DNA of 64,000 nt, taken from the sequence record PZ171033.1; one strand, given 5' to 3'. Position numbers and translations under genes: made by a program. Under the pieces are notes generated by a model that worked only from the letters and a program-made list of their open reading frames with translations, did no database searches and was not told where the DNA came from. Shown in pieces: positions 7,033 to 22,372 of the stretch. This DNA is from a phage. How positions within the stretch are numbered: position 1 is the stretch's first letter; every line of letters begins with the position of its first letter.

Positions 7033-8343
7033 ATGTTTTCCAAACCTACCAAAGCCCCACTGAACAAGGGGCAAGAAGCGGTTGCGAAGGAGTTCTTCGA
7101 CTTCCTGCTCAACCCTAATGCTACCGAATTCAATATTAGTGGCCCAGGGGGAACTGGCAAGACATTCCTGATGTCGCATCTCATTGATGACACTATGCCT
7201 GCATATATGGAAACTTGCTCCCTTATGGGAACCAAGCCCCTGTATAACGAAGTTGTTATGACTGCGACCACGAACAAGGCTGCTGAAGTTCTGGCTCAGG
7301 CTACTGGACGTCCAACATCTACCTATCACTCCTTTCAGGGACTGATTGTTAAGAATGACTTTAAGACTGGTGAGGCTAATGTCGTACCTTCTAAATCATT
7401 CAATATTAAGAAGAACAAAATCATCTTCGTAGATGAAGCATCCATGATTGACCGTCAGTTACTTAAGTATGCTCGTGAAGGTACTCACCAGTGCAAACTG
7501 GTATTTGTAGGTGATGCTTCTCAGCTTCTGCCTGTTAAAGAGAATAAGTCTCCAGTGTATGCAGGTAATATCCCAACACACTATCTGACTGAACAGATGC
7601 GTACCGATGCACCGGAACTCAAAGCATTGCACCAGCAATTGCGTGATACGGTGGAGGGTAAGACGGGCTTCCTGCCTATTAAATGTATTCCAGGCATTAT
7701 TGACTGGGTACAAGAAGAAGAGATGGAGAAACTGGTTCTCAGTCACTTCACTCAACCTACCAACAGCCGTATTGTTGCTTATACGAATGACCAGGTTATT
7801 AATTACAATAACTACATTCGTGAAGCTAATGGCTACGTGGGTGAGTACTCCATTGGTGAGCAGCTAGTGTCTAACTCAGCTGTTCGCTTAGGTGTGGAAG
7901 ACCGTCTGTCTATCGAGCAGGATGTAAAACTCATTGACCAGGATAGTAGTACTCGCATGATTAAGGTTACAGGTGACCTGGAACTGGAAGTTCGTGATAG
8001 TACTCTGGACCTTGGTTATGGTGGTATTGTAAGTGAAGTTCCAGTACCTACTGATCCAGACTACTTCAACCGTTTGGTTAAGTGGCTGGGTAAAGAGAAG
8101 AACTGGGAACCTTACTTCCGTCTTAAAGAAACCATTCCAGACCTGCGTGCTACTCATGCATGTACTGTTCATAAATCACAAGGCTCTACCTACGACACAA
8201 TCTTCATTGATGCAAATGACCTCTCAAGCTGTCGCCAACCTGATATGGTTGCTCGCCTGCTTTACGTCGCTGTGTCTCGTGCCCGTAAGCGAGTAGTGTT
8301 CTATGGCAATCTTGCCAGTAAGTATGGTGGTCTAACTTTCTAA
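7033..8343 (+). CDS. Dda-like SF1 DNA helicase
   Basis: Walker A GPGGTGKT; C-terminal helicase motifs VHKSQGSTYD and VAVSRARKRV; 436 aa. Confidence 0.85.
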   Translation: MFSKPTKAPLNKGQEAVAKEFFDFLLNPNATEFNISGPGGTGKTFLMSHLIDDTMPAYMETCSLMGTKPLYNEVVMTATTNKAAEVLAQATGRPTSTYHSFQGLIVKNDFKTGEANVVPSKSFNIKKNKIIFVDEASMIDRQLLKYAREGTHQCKLVFVGDASQLLPVKENKSPVYAGNIPTHYLTEQMRTDAPELKALHQQLRDTVEGKTGFLPIKCIPGIIDWVQEEEMEKLVLSHFTQPTNSRIVAYTNDQVINYNNYIREANGYVGEYSIGEQLVSNSAVRLGVEDRLSIEQDVKLIDQDSSTRMIKVTGDLELEVRDSTLDLGYGGIVSEVPVPTDPDYFNRLVKWLGKEKNWEPYFRLKETIPDLRATHACTVHKSQGSTYDTIFIDANDLSSCRQPDMVARLLYVAVSRARKRVVFYGNLASKYGGLTF

Positions 8344-8353
8344 GGGAGGATAT

Positions 8354-8884
8354 ATGCCTCAGATTGGTTCAGCAACTATTGGTCAAGTTGCCAATAGCAG
8401 TGAGATAGTCAAACACCTGTTCTTAGCAGAACTGGTTCGTCTTGATAGTGTGTTAAACGGTATCATTGATAAAAACGACCGCATCAATGGTATTGATGTA
8501 TCGGCTGGATTCCTTTATCAGGGTGAGTTCTATCAGCGTTCTAATGCTGCCAGACCTCCAACCTACGGTGAACGATTAACACTTAATCCAGAACTTTGGC
8601 CTGCAATGGACAAGTATCTGAAAGCCTCCAGTCGTTTGATTATGGAAGTACACCTTGTGAACCAGACTGTATATCGCCTGGTTCGTGGTTGTATGTCCTA
8701 TCAGGATGTACGTGATGCTTTACCTGAATGCCTGGTAGCTCAAGACCAGACTGGTAAGTACAAGGAACTGCCACGTACTCGTGAAGCAGCCTGGACTCTT
8801 GCTGGTGATGCTATGGCAATTAAACAATATGAGAAGATTCTTCCCTCTATTGAGTATTATGCAGCTTCCCATCTGTTTTTCTAA
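8354..8884 (+). CDS. hypothetical protein
   Basis: 176 aa ORF in replication module. Confidence 0.5.
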   Translation: MPQIGSATIGQVANSSEIVKHLFLAELVRLDSVLNGIIDKNDRINGIDVSAGFLYQGEFYQRSNAARPPTYGERLTLNPELWPAMDKYLKASSRLIMEVHLVNQTVYRLVRGCMSYQDVRDALPECLVAQDQTGKYKELPRTREAAWTLAGDAMAIKQYEKILPSIEYYAASHLFF

Positions 8885-8893
8885 GGTAAAGCT

Positions 8894-10858
8894 ATGCGTT
8901 ACATCACCTCTCAAGATACGGGTAAGTATCCTATTGCTATCCTCGGTCATCAAATCCGAAGGGAGGAGATGATTAAAACCTACCTGCTGCCTAATGACCT
9001 AAGCATGGAAGACTTCATCTTCATTGAACTTCATTCTGCCCCCGGCAAGAAGAAGACTCCTGCAAGGGAAATTAAGGAGTTCATACAGCAGGAACTGCAA
9101 CAGGTACTGGATGATGCAGAAACTCAATACATTATCTGTACTGATTCTGATTACTTCAAAATACTGACTAAAGAAGCTAAAGCAGAGGCTAACCTCGGCT
9201 ATGTTTGCGATTCAGTATGGGGTAAGCAGAAGGTTATCTATGCACCTAGCTACAGGCAAGTATTTTATGACCCACCTGTAGTGAAATCCAAGATTGCTCA
9301 GGGTATGGATGCATTACTTAACCACATACGTGGACAGTATGCTGAACCAGGTCATGGAATCATTGAATTTGAAGCCTATCCAGATACACCAGAGAAGATT
9401 AAAGCCTGGCTAGACCAGTTGCTTGAGATGAATAAGCCACTGGCTATAGACATCGAAGCATTCGGTTTAAAGCACTATAACGCCGGTATAGGGACAATTA
9501 CATTCTGTTGGAGTAAGACACAAGGCATAGCCTTTAATGTGGACTATGAGCCAATTAAGGGGGCTACTGAAGCTCCCTATGGGCGTATTAACAGGAACGA
9601 TGTTGTTCGTAACCTGTTACGTGAGTTCTTCATTAAGTACACTCAACGGCAGATGTATCACAACATTAGCTATGACGTGTACATACTTATCTATCAGTTA
9701 TTCATGGATAACCTGATTGATACGGAAGGCTTGCTGCATGGCATGGAAATCATGCTACGTAATTGGGACTGTACTAAGTTAATCACCTACCTGGCTACTA
9801 ACAGTTGTGCTGGTAATCACCTTAGTCTGAAAGAACAGGCTCAGGAATATGCTGGTAACTATGCTCAGGATGACATTAAAGACATTCGTCTTATTCCTAA
9901 TGAGCAACTGTTACGCTACAACCTCATTGATGGTTTGTGTACGTGGTACACCTACGAGAAGCACTGGGATACTCTCATTGCTGATGACCAACTGGATGTT
10001 TACAACAACATCTTTAAACCAGCCTGTGAAGACATTATTCAGATGCAGTTAACCGGTATGCCCATGAATATGGAAACCGTTAACCAAGTAGCTGAGGAGA
10101 TGGAAACTGACAGGAACCAGGCTCTGAAAACTATTCGTGAGTCTAAGCTCATGAAGAACTTCACCCTGATGCTTCGTCAGGAATGGGTAGACGATAAGAA
10201 TGCTAAGCTTAAGAAGAAGCAAGTAACATTGGCTGATTGTGACATCGAGTTTAATCCTAACTCCGGTCCACAATTGCAGAAGTTGTTATTTGACTATATT
10301 GGCTTACCGGTTCTTGGTCTTACTAAGAGCAAGCAACCTGCTACTGACGGTGACACTATTAAAGCACTGCGTACACATACGCAGAGTGAAGATGTTAAGG
10401 AACTGCTCAATGCACTTATCGACTATAAACTCGTGGATAAGATTATCACTAGTTTTATACCAGCTTTCAGGAATGCCCAACCAGGGCCGGATGGCTGGCA
10501 CTACCTATTCGGCAACCTCAATCTGGGAGGCACAGTCTCCGGTAGGCTATCGGCTTCAGAGCCAAATCTACAAACAATTCCATCCGGTTCTAAATATGCC
10601 AAGAAGATTAAGAAATGCTTCGAAGCTCCTCCTGGCTGGATATTTTGCGGTTTGGACTTCGCCTCGCTGGAAGACAGAATCTCTGCACTAACTACTAAAG
10701 ACCCTCAGAAGCTTAAGGTGTACATGGGTGTGACTGTTTATACAGTTACTATAGAAGGAGTTGACCATCATATCCGAGATGATGATACAATCGTTTATGA
10801 TGGTAAAACTTATACCGGTGAGGAGTTCTATGACGCTTTTACCTGTGGCCTTCTATGA
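8894..10858 (+). CDS. DNA polymerase family A, N-terminal part (3'-5' exonuclease + start of polymerase domain)
   Basis: Exo motifs DIEAFG and YHNISYDVY; polymerase motifs SGRLSASEPNLQTIP and LDFASLEDRI (motif A); terminates just before HNH ORF. Confidence 0.8.
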   Translation: MRYITSQDTGKYPIAILGHQIRREEMIKTYLLPNDLSMEDFIFIELHSAPGKKKTPAREIKEFIQQELQQVLDDAETQYIICTDSDYFKILTKEAKAEANLGYVCDSVWGKQKVIYAPSYRQVFYDPPVVKSKIAQGMDALLNHIRGQYAEPGHGIIEFEAYPDTPEKIKAWLDQLLEMNKPLAIDIEAFGLKHYNAGIGTITFCWSKTQGIAFNVDYEPIKGATEAPYGRINRNDVVRNLLREFFIKYTQRQMYHNISYDVYILIYQLFMDNLIDTEGLLHGMEIMLRNWDCTKLITYLATNSCAGNHLSLKEQAQEYAGNYAQDDIKDIRLIPNEQLLRYNLIDGLCTWYTYEKHWDTLIADDQLDVYNNIFKPACEDIIQMQLTGMPMNMETVNQVAEEMETDRNQALKTIRESKLMKNFTLMLRQEWVDDKNAKLKKKQVTLADCDIEFNPNSGPQLQKLLFDYIGLPVLGLTKSKQPATDGDTIKALRTHTQSEDVKELLNALIDYKLVDKIITSFIPAFRNAQPGPDGWHYLFGNLNLGGTVSGRLSASEPNLQTIPSGSKYAKKIKKCFEAPPGWIFCGLDFASLEDRISALTTKDPQKLKVYMGVTVYTVTIEGVDHHIRDDDTIVYDGKTYTGEEFYDAFTCGLL

Positions 10859-18069: not shown

Positions 18070-18522
18070 ATGCAAATCATTTTGAACCAGTCCGAAGTAG
18101 AAGCTGCTGTACAGGCTTATGTTGATGATCAAATCAATCTTGCTGGTGACATTAATATTGTCATCAATGCAGATGGTACTGCCTCCGTTGGTATCAACGA
18201 AGAGGTGAGTCATGAAGATGACACTCCACCCTTGGTAGAGAAGAAAACTCGTCGTTCCCGTAAAAACCCCCAAGAAGCTAAGCATCGTCCGGTAGAACCG
18301 GAGCCAGAAGAAGTAGTTGAAGAGGCAAAGGTAGAAGAAACCCAGACCTCTACTGGTGGTCCGAACGGGAATTCTACGCCGGAACCTGAAGAAGCAGTAG
18401 CTGAACCAGAAGCACAAGAAGAAGTTGTGCAGGAAGAGGATATGAAAGAAGACCGTGAGCTTCCTCCGGAAGAACGACCGGTAACGAAGCCTTCACTGTT
18501 CGCTGGCCTTAAACGTAGTTAA
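18070..18522 (+). CDS. acidic E/P-rich hypothetical protein
   Basis: Highly acidic low-complexity C-terminal half. Confidence 0.45.
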   Translation: MQIILNQSEVEAAVQAYVDDQINLAGDINIVINADGTASVGINEEVSHEDDTPPLVEKKTRRSRKNPQEAKHRPVEPEPEEVVEEAKVEETQTSTGGPNGNSTPEPEEAVAEPEAQEEVVQEEDMKEDRELPPEERPVTKPSLFAGLKRS

Positions 18523-19225
18523 TCTGGTAGGTGGCTCAGAAGCTGCTGCTATTTGTGGTAGTGTTCGTAATTCTGATGCTATTGCTTATCAGGATTCTGG
18601 ACGTGTCGGCTCCATACATAGCATTTATCATCACTGTACTTATACTTTGGAAACTCAGTGATAAAAACGGTGGTGACAAGCCGCCAGAGTAACAACAACA
18701 ACCGAACCAGTGGACTTTAATACTCTCCGAAGTCCACAGGTTCAATCTAAACTAAGCGGAAAAGTTAGCTTTTTCTTGGGTGTAGAACCTGTTGAAGGAA
18801 ACAAAGAATTTCACATTGAATAGTTAATATCGTAAAGGGTTCTGTTAGAATCCTTTGAGATAGGAACTCCTATCATAACTATTCTTAACTTAATCTTTGC
18901 CGTATGGCACTGACGCTAGGGGTGGCCCCCCATCCGTCAGGTAGACTATTTTAAGAATGGGTTATCACAGCAAATGTAAAGCAACATTCGGGTTAATCAA
19001 TGGCCTCTCCCTATAGGGGCCATTTCTGAATCTTAGGCTATATCCCAAAGGTTAGTATCTTTGGGATAAGGCTTCAGATCTCTTATCAACTAACGCTCAT
19101 GTTGAGCATTCTACTCACACAAGCCCCTATATGGGCTGGGTTAAATGTCGGATAGCATAGCTACCTACAGCATCGAGATGTTAGGTCTTACATGTAATAT
19201 AGGGTATAAAGGGAGGACTCGTCCC

Positions 19226-19242
19226 CTCCCTCCTATTATAAT
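19226..19242 (+). promoter_or_regulatory. promoter-like motif copy 1 (CCTATTATAAT)
   Basis: C-rich tract + TATAAT directly upstream of tRNA-like element. Confidence 0.3.
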
Positions 19243-19243
19243 G

Positions 19244-19313
19244 GTCGGGGTAGCACGTAGGCATGTGCGGATGGTCGCTACTTCCCTCGCTGGTTCGAAT
19301 CCAGCCCCCGACT
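19244..19313 (+). tRNA. tRNA-like element (non-canonical anticodon arm)
   Basis: 7/7 acceptor stem GTCGGGG/CCCCGAC, D arm GCAC/GTGC, T arm GCTGG-TTCGAAT-CCAGC; anticodon arm does not pair canonically by hand. Confidence 0.35.
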
Positions 19314-19864
19314 TACTGACATCCTATCAATGAGTACATTAGGCTAACGTGCGGAGGTTTACACTGTAGCCGGTGTAGGTGGAGAAGACGGCAGGGTAGC
19401 TACCTGTGCTTAGTGTACTCTTTGATAGTTTTCGTAAGCGATTATGCGGTTTTTTAGAAACGAACCAATAACATAAATGCAAACGATGATGTTGTTCTGA
19501 TGGCGGCGTAATAGCCTGTAAGTCAGCAAGGTCTTCCGACTCCTTGTAAGCAAATTCGGCGCAGTGGCCCGCTGTGATTAATAATGGGCACACAACAGGT
19601 AAGAGCATTTAGGCTACTGAGAAATCATCCGAGGCAATCAGACCTATCTTCTGTTAAGTGCTCTTTCCGTTGTGGTGAATGCGCAGGCTGATGCGCAGTG
19701 GGACGTGGCTGACTCACGAGGATGGCTCAAGCGAATAAGCAAGCTCGACGCCGCCGAATAAGCGCCTTATGCCGGAGATCAGCACCGGCCACCACAACAA
19801 GTCCAGACGATATCTGAGTGACTATAAAAACAGATGGAGCCAGGTGGAATCCCTGGCAACTAAT

Positions 19865-19930
19865 TCCGGTGTAGGTACTAGTGTCGTGCACGGCATGAGC
19901 ATTCTGGTTCGAGTCCAGACGCCGGAACCA
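19865..19930 (+). ncRNA. short tRNA-like element with encoded CCA
   Basis: Acceptor TCCGGTG/CGCCGGA, T arm TCTGG-TTCGAGT-CCAGA, 3' ACCA; only 31 nt between acceptor and T stem. Confidence 0.3.
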
Positions 19931-19932
19931 AT

Positions 19933-20056
19933 TATCAGTTGCACGAGATGGCTTGACATGTTCAAGTTTGGACTAAGTGTGACACCGCTAGATTGGAGGG
20001 CTGCTGCGGTAAGCTATAGACTCCAACCGGAGGTTCGAATCCTTCACTGATAACCA
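19933..20056 (+). ncRNA. 124-nt tRNA-like RNA with encoded CCA
   Basis: T arm GGAGG-TTCGAAT-CCTTC, 3' ACTGATA-A-CCA; only complementary 5' strand TATCAGT is 122 nt upstream. Confidence 0.25.
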
Positions 20057-20414
20057 ATTCAAAGTAGCATTGCACTAACCCATCCCGGAGTTCAAAGGCC
20101 AAACATGGAGCAGTGCTACTCTGAATTAGAAGAATTATGGTGGGTCTGGTGAAGTAGATAGGGTTCGATTCCCTCCGGTAGAGTAATCTACTAGCGTGCT
20201 TGGTGCACGAATAAGACTTAATACTGGTGGTTCAATTCCATCCCCCACTGCCTATTTGAGGTGTAACAGTTAAATCCAGTTGCCGGAAGTGCTATTCTAG
20301 ATACGCTGCCAATGTGTGAACGGTAAGGCTGTACAGGACTCGGACTCCCACCTCAAACCAAAGTCGCCAGATACTTATGGCAAACGGGTAGTAACGAACT
20401 AGTCATTCGTCAAA

Positions 20415-20432
20415 CGCCCACCCTATTATGAG
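20415..20432 (+). promoter_or_regulatory. promoter-like motif copy 2 (CACCCTATTATG)
   Basis: Near-identical to copy 3. Confidence 0.3.
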
Positions 20433-20610
20433 TCAGCAAGAACGCCTTCATTTAAACTTAAACAAAAAAGCTTAACGCAATAATTATGTAGGGGTATGTA
20501 AGGATTGCGAAGAAGGAGCCAGTTAAAGTCTGGCATGACTCACCTAATTGAGGCTGTACTTATGTTCTACAGTAGGTGCACAACACTGGGCTGCTACACC
20601 CAGAGGTACA

Positions 20611-20628
20611 GCCTCACCCTATTATGGG
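20611..20628 (+). promoter_or_regulatory. promoter-like motif copy 3 (CACCCTATTATG)
   Basis: Near-identical to copy 2. Confidence 0.3.
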
Positions 20629-20693
20629 TAGCCTATACTAGTTATAGGGCAGATAATCTGTGGCAGTGTAAGGCTGCACTACCCTTTCATTAA

Positions 20694-20769
20694 TACCCGG
20701 TAGGCTTAGTGGTAAAGCCCCACTAGTAAACCAACTAGGACGCAGGTTCGAATCCTGTCCGGGTAGCCA
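20694..20769 (+). tRNA. tRNA-like gene with encoded CCA (6-nt anticodon loop)
   Basis: Acceptor TACCCGG/CCGGGTA, D arm GGCT/AGCC, T arm GCAGG-TTCGAAT-CCTGT, discriminator G + CCA; anticodon stem CTAGT/ACTAG with 6-nt loop. Confidence 0.4.
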
Positions 20770-20774
20770 TTTAT

Positions 20775-20859
20775 GCCCACTTAGCTCAGTGGTAGAGCGC
20801 AGGAAAGCTTCGAGAGAACAAGGTGTCTGTGGTCACTGGTTCAAATCCAGTAGTGGGTA
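20775..20859 (+). tRNA. tRNA-like gene, 85 nt, no pairable anticodon arm
   Basis: Acceptor GCCCACT/AGTGGGT, canonical D arm TAGCTCAGTGGTAGAGC, T arm ACTGG-TTCAAAT-CCAGT; 36 nt between D and T arms with no 5-bp/7-nt stem-loop. Confidence 0.4.
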
Positions 20860-21174
20860 CTTATTTGCTGCAATATTCCCATAGGGAATGGTGTCGTATA
20901 CGCCACCTAGTTTCTGGTGAAACTCCAGATGCAGCAATCCATTCAGCAGTAACATAGTCCTGATTGCATTGCACTCTAAAGACAACACTGGTAAGACAGT
21001 CCAGTGGCTGCTATTGTATTGTTATTCCCCTCGACGGGAATTTCGCTAGTGAAGGTAACACTTAAAAATCCAAACCCACGTCTTACTGCTATCGGGCTAT
21101 CAACCCACAGTCGCTTAACACACTAGTGGTAGTAGTTTGACGACCTAGCCTCGTTAGCTGCGTTAAAGCTACTA

Positions 21175-21210
21175 AGTCCCCTAGAGGGGCGGCTCTAGGG
21201 GACTTTTTTA
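21175..21210 (+). terminator. strong intrinsic terminator
   Basis: 12-bp stem AGTCCCCTAGAG/CTCTAGGGGACT then T6. Confidence 0.7.
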
Positions 21211-21238
21211 TTTGAGTATTAATAGCCGGATAATCAAT

Positions 21239-21397
21239 ATGATTGACCTAATCTCAACCCCGTATGCCTATGAGGTAACGGACAACCGAGGGCATAAGTA
21301 CTTGGTATTTGCAGGTAGCGTAGCCTATAACAACGCAGTCATGTTTAAGTACAAACTCAAACCACTCTATGAGGCTAATAATGGCAACAGTAAGTAA
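21239..21397 (+). CDS. hypothetical protein
   Basis: Short ORF, start taken at ATG 21239. Confidence 0.4.
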   Translation: MIDLISTPYAYEVTDNRGHKYLVFAGSVAYNNAVMFKYKLKPLYEANNGNSK

Positions 21398-21761
21398 AGA
21401 AGCAATCGAAGCTAAGATTAAGAGCGTCTACTATTTCAATGGAGCGGATGCAGTGAAGTCTGCATTCGTTGACCCATCTGCACTACCGGCAGATGATTTG
21501 GCTAACCTGGGTCTGGTAACCTATTGTGTAATCATTCTGGAAAACAACTTTAAAGTTGAAGGTGTATCTGCTTGCGTAGACCCAACTATCTATGATGAAC
21601 AGAAGGGTCGTCAATATGCATATGAAAATGCATTCAATAAGATTTGGGAATTAGAGGGTTACCTACTACGTCAGGCACTGCACGAGAAAGAAGAGACTGC
21701 TAAAGCTCTGGCTTCCTTTGCAGAAAACAATACCTGTGATGGTGGTGGTTGTACAATCTGA
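21381..21761 (+). CDS. hypothetical protein
   Basis: ATG 21381 with GAGG upstream. Confidence 0.5.
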   Translation: MATVSKEAIEAKIKSVYYFNGADAVKSAFVDPSALPADDLANLGLVTYCVIILENNFKVEGVSACVDPTIYDEQKGRQYAYENAFNKIWELEGYLLRQALHEKEETAKALASFAENNTCDGGGCTI

Positions 21762-21843
21762 TCCAAAGGTGTAAGGTAGTTTTTACCGAAAGGTACTGAA
21801 CTACCCGACAAAGTAGTAAGGCTCTAGAAGCCGAAACAAAACA

Positions 21844-21866
21844 AGCCCTCCTAGCGAGGGCTTTAT
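21844..21866 (+). terminator. terminator-like hairpin
   Basis: AGCCCTC-CTAGC-GAGGGCT then TTTAT. Confidence 0.45.
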
Positions 21867-21880
21867 CATTTGAGGTAGTT

Positions 21881-22372
21881 ATGTCAGAAGAAATTAAAGT
21901 CCATTTCACCAACTACATTGGAACCAAGTGTGTAAATGGATTCCGGATGAACAAGGAAACATATTGCAAACTCCGTGGCTGGGATGTGCCTGCTAATGAA
22001 GACCCATTAGAAGTAGGTTACTTAGTAGAATACCCAGATTCTAAACCTAACCATGAACAATTCCGTGGTTATATTAGCTGGTCACCAAGGGCTGCATTTG
22101 AAGCTGCATATTGTGATGTAGATAAGGGTTGTACTTTTGGTCACGCAGTAGAACTTATAAAACTGGGTCACAGACTGACCCGTAAAGGCTGGAACGGTAA
22201 GGGAATGTATATTACCCTAGTATCTGGTGAAAATTGGGCTATGGATAAACATGAGAATACCGTATGTGAGAAACGGGATTGGTTGGGCATCAAAACTGTT
22301 GATGACCAGTTTATGCCTTGGGTTCCTTCCCAATCGGATGTATTAGCTGAAGATTGGGTATTAGCTCAGTAA
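21881..22372 (+). CDS. DUF2829-domain protein (Tad2-like candidate)
   Basis: C-terminal FGHAVELIKLGHRLTRKGWNGKGMYITL ... SDVLAEDWVL matches DUF2829 signature from memory; RBS GAGGTAG. Confidence 0.5.
   Translation: MSEEIKVHFTNYIGTKCVNGFRMNKETYCKLRGWDVPANEDPLEVGYLVEYPDSKPNHEQFRGYISWSPRAAFEAAYCDVDKGCTFGHAVELIKLGHRLTRKGWNGKGMYITLVSGENWAMDKHENTVCEKRDWLGIKTVDDQFMPWVPSQSDVLAEDWVLAQ

Follow-up and report, generated by a model that had tools for sequence, protein, structure and literature searches.

The window analysed here, a 64,000-nucleotide stretch of phage DNA (record PZ171033.1), contains between positions 18,830 and 19,070 three hairpins that a sequence-only reading had singled out as candidates for an origin, protein-binding sites or small RNAs. 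On balance, with a confidence slightly above even, comparative sequence evidence leads us to read these hairpins as helices of one folded non-coding RNA, which would define an uncatalogued family of Gamaleyavirus, phiEco32-like and 7-11-like phages. Small RNAs are thus the best fit among the earlier candidates, given a conserved element with homologues in two other phage families and features of RNA type; the folded RNA may in addition bind protein. The phage is N4-like and belongs to the genus Gamaleyavirus (Schitoviridae), its closest matches being St11Ph5, EC1-UPM, Bp4, G7C and others at 91-96% identity. In this genus the element takes a long form, in which a two-hairpin module occurs twice in tandem together with a genus-specific insert; a variable central domain enclosed in a long-range helix and a two-tier 3' stem complete it, as laid out below.

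18824-19239, plus strand: whole conserved non-coding element, about 416 nt, the Gamaleyavirus "long form", supported by alignment, fold and absence of open reading frames (ORFs)
18827-18879, plus strand: module copy 1, with 5' UAUC, P1 (hairpin 1, 18833-18857, loop GUU), P2 GAUAGG/CCUAUC (18859-18874) and AUAAC
18875-18966, plus strand: part 1 of the Gamaleyavirus insert, a predicted three-way domain (minimum free energy (MFE) fold, z = -3.4)
18999-19024, plus strand: hairpin 2, within the Gamaleyavirus insert, a 10-pair stem AAUGGCCUCU/AGGGGCCAUU that includes one U·G pair and closes the loop CCCUAU
19040-19094, plus strand: module copy 2, with P1 CCCAAAG/CUUUGGG and P1a UAUC/GAUA stacked without a gap, together hairpin 3, and then P2
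19065-19087, plus strand: P2 of copy 2, GAUAAGG (19065-19071), loop CUUCAGAUC (19072-19080) and UCUUAUC (19081-19087), with AACUAAC (19088-19094) after it
19090-19184, plus strand: long-range helix P3, CUAAC (19090-19094) paired with GUUAG (19180-19184)
19180-19194, plus strand: near-invariant strand GUUAG(G/A)UCUUACAUG (GUUAGRUCUUACAUG), kept in all three families
19199-19239, plus strand: two-tier 3' stem, P4 AUAGG (19199-19203)/CCUAU (19232-19236) and P5 AGGGAGG (19210-19216)/CCUCCCU (19225-19231)

Hairpins and architecture of the element

All three hairpins are present and non-random, but the description of them as a cluster of long perfect hairpins needs correction, as two of the three carry wobble pairs and all belong to the one larger element at 18824-19239 instead of being independent sites. 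Hairpin 1, AAAGGGTTCT-GTT-AGAATCCTTT, does have a 3-nt loop and 10 pairs, but it lies at 18834-18856, one base to the right of where it had been placed (18833-18855), and its stem is imperfect, G18839 standing opposite T18851 in a G·T wobble; if wobbles are counted, the stem reaches 11 pairs (18833-18857). For hairpin 2, the perfect 7-mers AATGGCC (18999-19005) and GGCCATT (19018-19024) and the palindrome CCCTATAGGG (19009-19018) are all found as reported, but the inner palindrome and the outer arm cannot both fully form because they have one G in common, and the fold preferred by energy and by the relatives is a 10-pair stem AATGGCCTCT/AGGGGCCATT with one T·G wobble and the loop CCCTAT. Hairpin 3, TATCCCAAAG-GTTAGTAT-CTTTGGGATA at 19041-19068, is exactly the perfect 10-bp stem that had been described, and in a scan of 18821-19240 it is the sole strictly Watson-Crick hairpin of at least 9 bp. 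When G·T pairs were allowed, the same scan returned six records of at least 10 bp, which are nested registers of the three hairpins within 240 nt, compared with a mean of 0.2 such records in 500 dinucleotide shuffles, none of which reached six. It also holds that no U tract follows hairpins 1-3: the sequence after them is not U-rich and a terminator scan lists none of them, so they are not simple terminators, and a Rho-independent terminator reading of these three hairpins was rejected.

The place of hairpins 1 and 3 within the element emerges from a covariance model of the P1-P2 module (R1) seeded solely by phiEco32-like and 7-11-like sequences, with no Gamaleyavirus member. Searched against the 64-kb window, R1 matched exactly two sites, both on the plus strand, at 18827-18879 (43.3 bits, E = 5e-12) and 19040-19094 (40.8 bits, E = 3.5e-11), while the next-best match reached 15 bits and the first site, read on its minus strand, scored 14.6 bits with non-canonical pairs. 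Because R1 matches precisely those two sites, hairpins 1 and 3 are taken as the first stems of two tandem module copies. In copy 2, P1a stacks directly on P1, which is why a perfect 10-bp hairpin is seen at 19041-19068, and P1a and P2 both claim GAUA 19065-19068. Between the module copies lies the Gamaleyavirus-specific insert of about 155 nt, which holds hairpin 2. In part 1 of this insert, a predicted helix (18875-18888 with 18951-18965) surrounds the predicted hairpins UGCC-GUAU-GGCA (18898-18909) and CUGACG...CGUCAG (18910-18940); the tip of the latter varies (GGGG-UGGCC-CCCC, GGG-UUUAU-GCCC and others) with GGG/CCC retained, and part 1 is nearly invariant within the genus. The resemblance of UGCCGUAUGGCA (18898-18909) to a type I-F CRISPR repeat hairpin is too short to judge and was dropped. 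In hairpin 2, the U·G pair becomes U-A in pSb-1 and in relative L141, the loop is one base shorter in G7C and in relatives L140 and L141, and one relative has a U·U mismatch.

Downstream of copy 2, P3 closes a variable multi-hairpin domain (19095-19179) that is replaced wholesale in alignments, with at least three non-homologous versions of 19087-19175 among the Gamaleyavirus relatives. P3 forms in independent MFE folds of phiEco32 and pSal-SNUABM-01, and it grows to 8 pairs in the latter and to 7 in phage 7-11. When four short-form members were folded independently by minimum energy, all took one common layout, namely P1, P2, the AACUAAC joiner, P3, the near-invariant strand and P4/P5, and P2 of the short forms has the conserved loop CUUNAGAUN. 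At the 3' end, P4 encloses P5, with 3-7 bases left unpaired between them solely on the 5' side, and is followed by a U/A-rich tail, which in short forms ranges from UUUAU to UUUUAAAA; the P5 loop is ACUCGUCC in the window and UCGYCC across families. The element homology block and the insertion point of a tRNA-like unit both end at P4/P5, which suggests that this stem is a terminator-like or processing boundary. With its U-rich tail (19199-19239) it resembles a Rho-independent terminator, and more strongly so in the short forms (UAUUUUAUU, UUUUAAAA), but the resemblance is loose, its P5 loop is conserved across families, and the AU-rich P4 tier takes up part of the U tract, which is atypical.

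Conservation in three phage families

Within Gamaleyavirus, an alignment of 13 relatives, later of 18 distinct sequences, shows a conservation block with a sharp start directly 3' of the gp47.2 stop codon. The 5' part of the element (18821-19086, 266 nt) is as conserved as the best neighbouring gene and more conserved than gp47, with 96.0% identity across the 13 relatives compared with 96.8% for gp46, 92.5% for the SSB gene, 85.5% for gp47 and 87.7% for a small ORF (about 88% with its spacer). A lack of conservation had been named as part of what would refute the hairpins, and both this identity and the homologues in two other phage families clearly contradict it. The last 65 nt of the element are conserved again, in two variant types, and homology stops at CCTATTAT (19232-19239), exactly where an 80-nt tRNA-like unit is inserted in the window and in at least five relatives (St11Ph5, Bp4, ECBP1, pSb-1 and L140). 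A protein-coding gene was rejected, as there is no ORF of at least 30 aa in 18824-19144, the relatives differ by 1-nt indels within the element, the central domain is swapped wholesale, and the small coding sequences annotated in some relatives are not conserved.

Outside the genus, BLAST finds 19059-19237 again at about 78% identity in phiEco32-like phages (Gordonclarkvirinae), whose version of about 220-240 nt fills an intergenic gap and consists of a hairpin near-identical to hairpin 1, a hairpin GAUAGGA-CUUCAGAUC-UCCUAUC and then the equivalent of 19088-19239. A third, more divergent set, in Salmonella phage 7-11, SE131 and pSal-SNUABM-01 (Grimontviridae), exactly fills an intergenic gap as well. 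Across these two groups the short forms measure about 185-240 nt and begin 1-6 nt past upstream stop codons that are unrelated in both families. Each of the three families has different genes upstream and downstream of the element, which itself always lies on the strand of the downstream genes and has tRNA genes within 1.5 kb in all three. A transfer-messenger RNA (tmRNA)-like gene lies directly downstream of it in Gamaleyavirus, some phiEco32-likes have only the first hairpin of that module there, and in phage 7-11 the match is found about 1.2 kb upstream, past protein genes. A conserved upstream ORF partner, as in a toxin-antitoxin-like cassette, was rejected, since the three upstream proteins look unrelated by eye and gp47.2 is deleted in phages with an intact element.

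Database searches placed the element in no catalogued family and in no further phage group. At the gathering threshold, Rfam 15 reports two tRNAs in the 64-kb window and nothing on the element; over 18500-21500 with E up to 5, it gives on the element only a 19-bit chance match to a miRNA (19029-19079); and with E up to 1 it has no match on the element at the phiEco32, ECBP2, 7-11 and L151 loci. The element has no BLAST match in 5,426 complete E. coli genomes, and for this reason we take it to be neither host- nor prophage-derived. The most divergent member, searched by BLAST against 50,697 phage records, revealed no fourth family. A 14-mer scan of IMG/VR gave mostly chance matches, which were filtered with nhmmer, and a gapped two-hairpin pattern, run over IMG/VR, metagenomes and GTDB genomes, brought up no phage group beyond these three and otherwise chance matches, the metagenome and GTDB scans yielding phiEco32-like phages only. 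In the literature on non-coding RNAs or transcriptomes of N4-like phages, G7C and phiEco32 and on phage tmRNA-like genes, we found nothing relevant.

Evidence for a plus-strand RNA and competing explanations

Across families, P1 and P1a are 99.6% paired, with four pairs changed on both sides, compared with 37-56% when the partners are slid. P1a changes from UAUC/GAUA to CAAC/GUUG in the 7-11-like phages, single P1 positions alternate among G·U, A-U and G-C and likewise among U·G, U-A and C-G, and P1 of pSal-SNUABM-01 shows a compensated change from A-U to G-C. In P2 every pair is kept (100%), three of them having changed on both sides, and its variants are GAUAGGA/UCCUAUC, GAUAAGG/CCUUAUC and GUUGAGG/CCUUGAC. 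Two to three wobble pairs of P1 are fixed on the plus strand, where the opposite strand would have A·C mismatches. Despite different sequences, P4/P5 adopts the same fold in 27 of 27 distinct variants (P5 as GGGAGG/CCUCCC, GGCGG/CCGCC or GAGGGA/UCCCUC; P4 as AAUAGG/CCUAUU or UAGGGA/UCCCUA). The P1 loops of the short forms are UNCG tetraloops (UACG, UUCG, UCCG), and the central domain of the 7-11-type members has GAAA (GNRA) and UUCG loops. Compensatory changes, plus-strand G·U pairs, UNCG and GNRA loops and strand-specific model matches, the generic marks of a structured non-coding RNA, are thus all found.

The GAUA that follows P1 (GUUG in 7-11-like phages) pairs either upstream with UAUC (CAAC) or downstream with the 3' arm of P2, UAUC (UGAC/UAAC), so that P1a and P2 are mutually exclusive, and both alternatives covary between families. 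In addition, the P2 loop offers AGAY (19076-19079) as a pairing partner for RUCU (19185-19188), the combinations being AGAU:GUCU (21), AGAU:AUCU (9) and AGAC:GUCU (1), with C opposite A never found; this suggests a possible pseudoknot between the P2 loop and RUCU, for which the evidence is suggestive only because the changes are one-sided. A second tertiary pairing, of the P5 loop with CGAG/CGGA just 5' of GUUAG, was discarded, as it fits Gamaleyavirus and ECBP2-type phages but not phiEco32 or pSal-SNUABM-01.

Several observations weigh against a folded plus-strand RNA. Within Gamaleyavirus the helices are almost invariant, so that covariation there is uninformative, and hairpin 3 shows within the genus only uncompensated mismatches (6 of 180 cells), several of them A·C, which would turn into wobbles on the minus strand. 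Fold energy fails to tell the strands apart, the 422-nt stretch being much more stable than its shuffles on both, with z = -6.6 on the plus and z = -6.0 on the minus strand. Shuffle statistics overstate the support, since the covariation rests on few lineages, essentially three clades. Outside the genus the insert, hairpin 2 included, has no homologue, and the functional evidence is for that reason weakest for hairpin 2. The window's own U tract after P4/P5 is poor (CCUAUUAUAAU), no conserved promoter lies upstream of the element, and we infer the transcription, ends and stability of the RNA from sequence.

The same features can be read in other ways. As a cis-acting, riboswitch-like leader or attenuator, the element would sense a ligand, a protein or a tRNA through its core and, by means of the P1a/P2 switch and P4/P5, gate readthrough into what lies downstream, which is the tRNA/tmRNA-like island in Gamaleyavirus and protein genes in the other two families. 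Several features agree with such a leader: both of the mutually exclusive helices P1a and P2 covary, a loop-strand pseudoknot is possible, the GC-rich, terminator-like 3' stem has a U-rich tail and lies about 12-15 nt ahead of the following start codon in 7-11-like phages and about 60 nt ahead of it in phiEco32-likes, and the element in every case shares the orientation of the downstream genes. We consider it unlikely nonetheless, as what lies downstream is unrelated from family to family, and consists of RNA genes in Gamaleyavirus, and as the element comes without a conserved downstream gene, an identified antiterminator opposing the 3' stem, or an identified ligand. No conserved pairing that competes with P4/P5 was found, an AUAGGA/UCCUAU resemblance being confined to two families, and a size of 185-416 nt with a replaceable central domain is unusual for an aptamer. 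Furthermore, a sigma-70-like promoter (TTGAAT-17-TTATAT, by eye) follows the element in phiEco32-likes, so that the end of one unit and the start of the next fits better there than regulated readthrough. Lower still in probability is that the element consists of processing or stability signals only, comparable to the RNase III sites of T7, serving as punctuation for ribonuclease (RNase) III, RNase E or RNase P or as 3'-end protection of a polycistronic transcript, and having no role as an RNA of its own. Its position directly after upstream stop codons without a promoter of its own would agree with this, as would a tRNA-like insert, a likely RNase P substrate, abutting its 3' end. Also in line is the distribution of CCTATTAT, which occurs three times in the 64-kb window, always on the plus strand and within 1.4 kb in the RNA island (19232, 20422 and 20618). 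A predicted hairpin lies ahead of the copies at 19232 and 20618, but around the copy at 20422 the fold is no better than chance, and the motif may be a punctuation, processing or termination motif of RNA genes. Hairpin 3 can be extended to a 21-nt imperfect duplex, but this extension is broken in Bp4 and ECBP1 and was rejected as a feature of the element. Simple processing sites, moreover, need no 15-nt near-invariant strand, conserved P2 and P5 loops, long-range helix or duplicated module, and the conservation is on a par with that of core proteins.

An element acting as DNA, whether as an origin, as an N4-type single-stranded hairpin promoter for the virion RNA polymerase (vRNAP) or as a protein-binding or recombination site extruded as cruciforms, is highly improbable in our view. 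Early promoters of N4 are DNA hairpins, and the vRNAP promoters described in the Rothman-Denes laboratory literature have a 5-7 bp stem, a 3-nt loop, a central template-strand purine and a G at -8, and are known from vRNAP-encoding phages only. Hairpin 1 recalls them in being small, with a loop of 3 nt, and in belonging to an N4-like genome, but it lies about 34 kb into the genome, not at the early left end, its stem has 10-11 pairs including a wobble, and its loop reads GUU with U as the central plus-strand base; on the minus strand the loop is AAC, but the -8 position reads C instead of G. Its homologues in phiEco32-like and 7-11-like phages, which are not known to have a virion RNA polymerase, carry 4-nt UNCG loops on P1, and a vRNAP hairpin promoter was accordingly rejected. 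For an origin one could cite the AT-rich bin at 18800-18899 (GC 0.29), and for recombination the mosaic character of the region, in which an HNH endonuclease gene lies nearby in G7C and ZQ2. The origin that the sequence-only reading had listed as a candidate is nevertheless not borne out: there are no iterons, a search of the region for repeated boxes gave only three chance-level pairs of 12-16 nt, the AT-rich bin is a single 100-nt bin inside the conserved folded element, and the cumulative GC skew has no inflection at 19 kb but a maximum at about 22 kb, where gene orientation flips. The conserved features are of RNA type, the wobbles fixed on one strand would be A·C mismatches in a complementary DNA hairpin, and the terminator-like, tetraloop and pseudoknot features would be meaningless in DNA. 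Promoter readings of single hairpins were likewise set aside, as a sigma-70 promoter in hairpin 1 (TTAATA-16-TAGAAT with TG) is by eye not conserved in the short forms and the motif of a T7-like reading of CCCTATAGGG does not recur upstream of other genes.

Returning to the folded RNA, it would be read rightward from the plus strand together with the replication genes upstream and into the island of tRNA-like and tmRNA-like RNA genes, joint transcription being suggested because no promoter of its own is conserved. Its 5' start would be near UAUCGUGAAGG. Each module could toggle between the P1a and P2 folds, and in the P2 state the loop would dock on RUCU beside the closing helix to give a compact pseudoknotted core. 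The 3' end would be set at P4/P5 by termination or RNase cleavage, with RNase P as a candidate where the tRNA-like insert abuts, and the stable RNA would accumulate and act in trans by binding a host or phage factor.

Such an RNA looks like a new family of a kind already known, that of orphan phage RNAs. The T4 species 1 and species 2 RNAs (rnaC/rnaD) are stable RNAs of about 120-140 nt in a phage tRNA cluster. Compared by description only, they share with the element a structured, non-coding nature, a position beside tRNA genes on the same strand, the lack of an evident promoter of their own and, presumably, excision from a common transcript; unlike them, the element measures 185-416 nt, carries a 5' module in duplicate and a central domain that can be swapped, and occurs in three unrelated podophage families. 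GOLLD and ROOL, large non-coding RNAs of phages and prophages, often beside tRNA genes and mainly in Gram-positive and other hosts, are multi-helix RNAs as well, but they are larger, whereas the element is confined to lytic enterobacterial podophages and has no Rfam 15 match up to E = 5 (the models being assumed to include both families).

The surrounding RNA island and its relevance

The element lies in a stretch of about 2.7 kb (about 18700-21369) that is almost devoid of ORFs and contains the three hairpins, tRNA genes and tRNA-like pieces. On one side is the replication block (homologues of gp43-gp47, plus strand) and on the other gp48/gp49, upstream of the convergent virion RNA polymerase gene. 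This gp47-gp48 interval is largely unannotated in the dozen relatives whose annotation we inspected. The features around the element are these.

18704-18743, plus strand: upstream hairpin, outside the element, between the small 53-aa ORF and the gp47.2 remnant (fold z = -4.5)
19238-19317, plus strand: tRNA-like insert of about 80 nt between CCTATTAT and GACATCC, called by ARAGORN as tRNA-Ala(cgc) at 19243-19314
19318-19800, plus strand: unannotated tmRNA-like gene, directly downstream of the element, with a tag frame at 19478-19510
19863-19931, 19936-20053, about 20160 and about 20228, plus strand: tRNA-like pieces called by neither ARAGORN nor Rfam, with T-arm motifs GGTTCGAnTCC and acceptor-like stems
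20694-20769 and 20775-20859, plus strand: two adjacent tRNAs with abnormal anticodon regions (ARAGORN / Rfam)

Between gp47 and the RNA region, an ORF at 18531-18692 (plus strand, GTG start, 53 aa) encodes a very hydrophobic peptide, MAQKLLLFVVVFVILMLLLIRIL..., which is probably a small membrane protein. The stem of the upstream hairpin covaries (GUGGACUU/AAGUCCAC, GUGGAUUGG/CCAGUCCA, GUCCCCUU/AAGGGGA) around a conserved 10-nt loop, AAUACUCUCC, and lies just ahead of the gp47.2 start in relatives. Intact in G7C, Bp4 and St11Ph5, gp47.2 has 56 aa; in the window it is a remnant (18755-18823, plus strand) with two deletions of 29 and about 71 nt, and it is likewise a remnant in 24-32N, EC1-UPM, IME11, AN24P2 and CU10EC, the adjoining non-coding element being intact.

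In the tRNA-like insert the acceptor stem GUCGGGG/CCCCGAC lacks G3:U70, the D stem has 6 bp, the T arm is normal and the anticodon region is odd; in Rfam the insert gives only a sub-threshold match to tRNA-Sec. In two of the further tRNA-like pieces the last bases are an encoded ACCA (UCCGGUG...CGCCGGA-ACCA; UAUCAGU...ACUGAUA-ACCA), and the latter of these has a long internal insert. Of the two adjacent tRNAs, that at 20694-20769 is reported by ARAGORN as "tRNA-???" with a 2-nt anticodon, and that at 20775-20859, found by Rfam only, has a 24-nt insert at the position of the anticodon loop; relatives annotate the pair variously as Ile, Cys, Thr, "OTHER" or pseudo.

The tmRNA-like gene rests on a sub-threshold Rfam match to tmRNA_permuted (31.2 bits against a threshold of 47, E = 7e-4) and on a tag-like frame, GCAAACGATGATGTTGTTCTGATGGCGGCGTAA, which reads ANDDVVLMAA-stop where PhAPEC5, PhAPEC7 and L141 have ANEEAYLMVA-stop in the same place. 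The element itself was rejected as a part of this gene, since the tmRNA_permuted match and tag frame (19408-19511) lie outside it, and ECBP2-type phages carry the element with no adjoining tag frame. Matches to the module come from over 500 phage records in many families, with no annotation at any locus inspected, and the module also occurs on Klebsiella plasmids of about 110 kb, which are probably phage-plasmids, and in lambdoid E. coli prophages, in the interval between the Q antiterminator and holin genes (about 5930-6370 in L136). Its first long hairpin (UAUCAAUGAGUACA...UGUACUCUUUGAUAG, then UUUU; 19324-19431 in the window) occurs alone in some phiEco32-likes, directly after the element (2695-2790 in L015 and about 3375-3460 in L151), and looks like a strong terminator there. 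In the L136 prophage, 8179-9272, compared with about 21369-22372 of the window, encodes proteins annotated as DUF2829 and Gp49-family near the lysis genes; these are the families annotated for the N4-like gp48/gp49, which flank the RNA island in the window. This suggests that a larger module has been exchanged between temperate and lytic phages.

Annotation pipelines leave such phage "RNA islands" blank, and the gp47-gp48 interval is an example in which hairpins turn out to be part of a discrete, strongly constrained element with a definable architecture and a duplicated switch-like module. Its carriers are well-studied and easily grown phages of E. coli and Salmonella (G7C/Bas96, phiEco32/Bas86-88 and 7-11), and a covariance-model seed for its annotation has been gained. 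The neighbouring genes hint, speculatively, at a role in translation, RNA metabolism or anti-defence. A more ambitious proposal, to which we give rather little credence, is that of a class of bistable, pseudoknotted RNAs exchanged horizontally among unrelated lytic coliphage families and working with the unannotated tmRNA-like and tRNA-like genes that accompany them. Were it true, the exchanged RNA could be a cofactor or regulator of phage-run ribosome rescue or tagging, or a decoy against host defences that attack tRNA-type molecules. Without a link to the tmRNA-like gene, the element would be another orphan structured RNA; a joint action with that gene would make it relevant to the ways in which lytic phages manipulate host translation.

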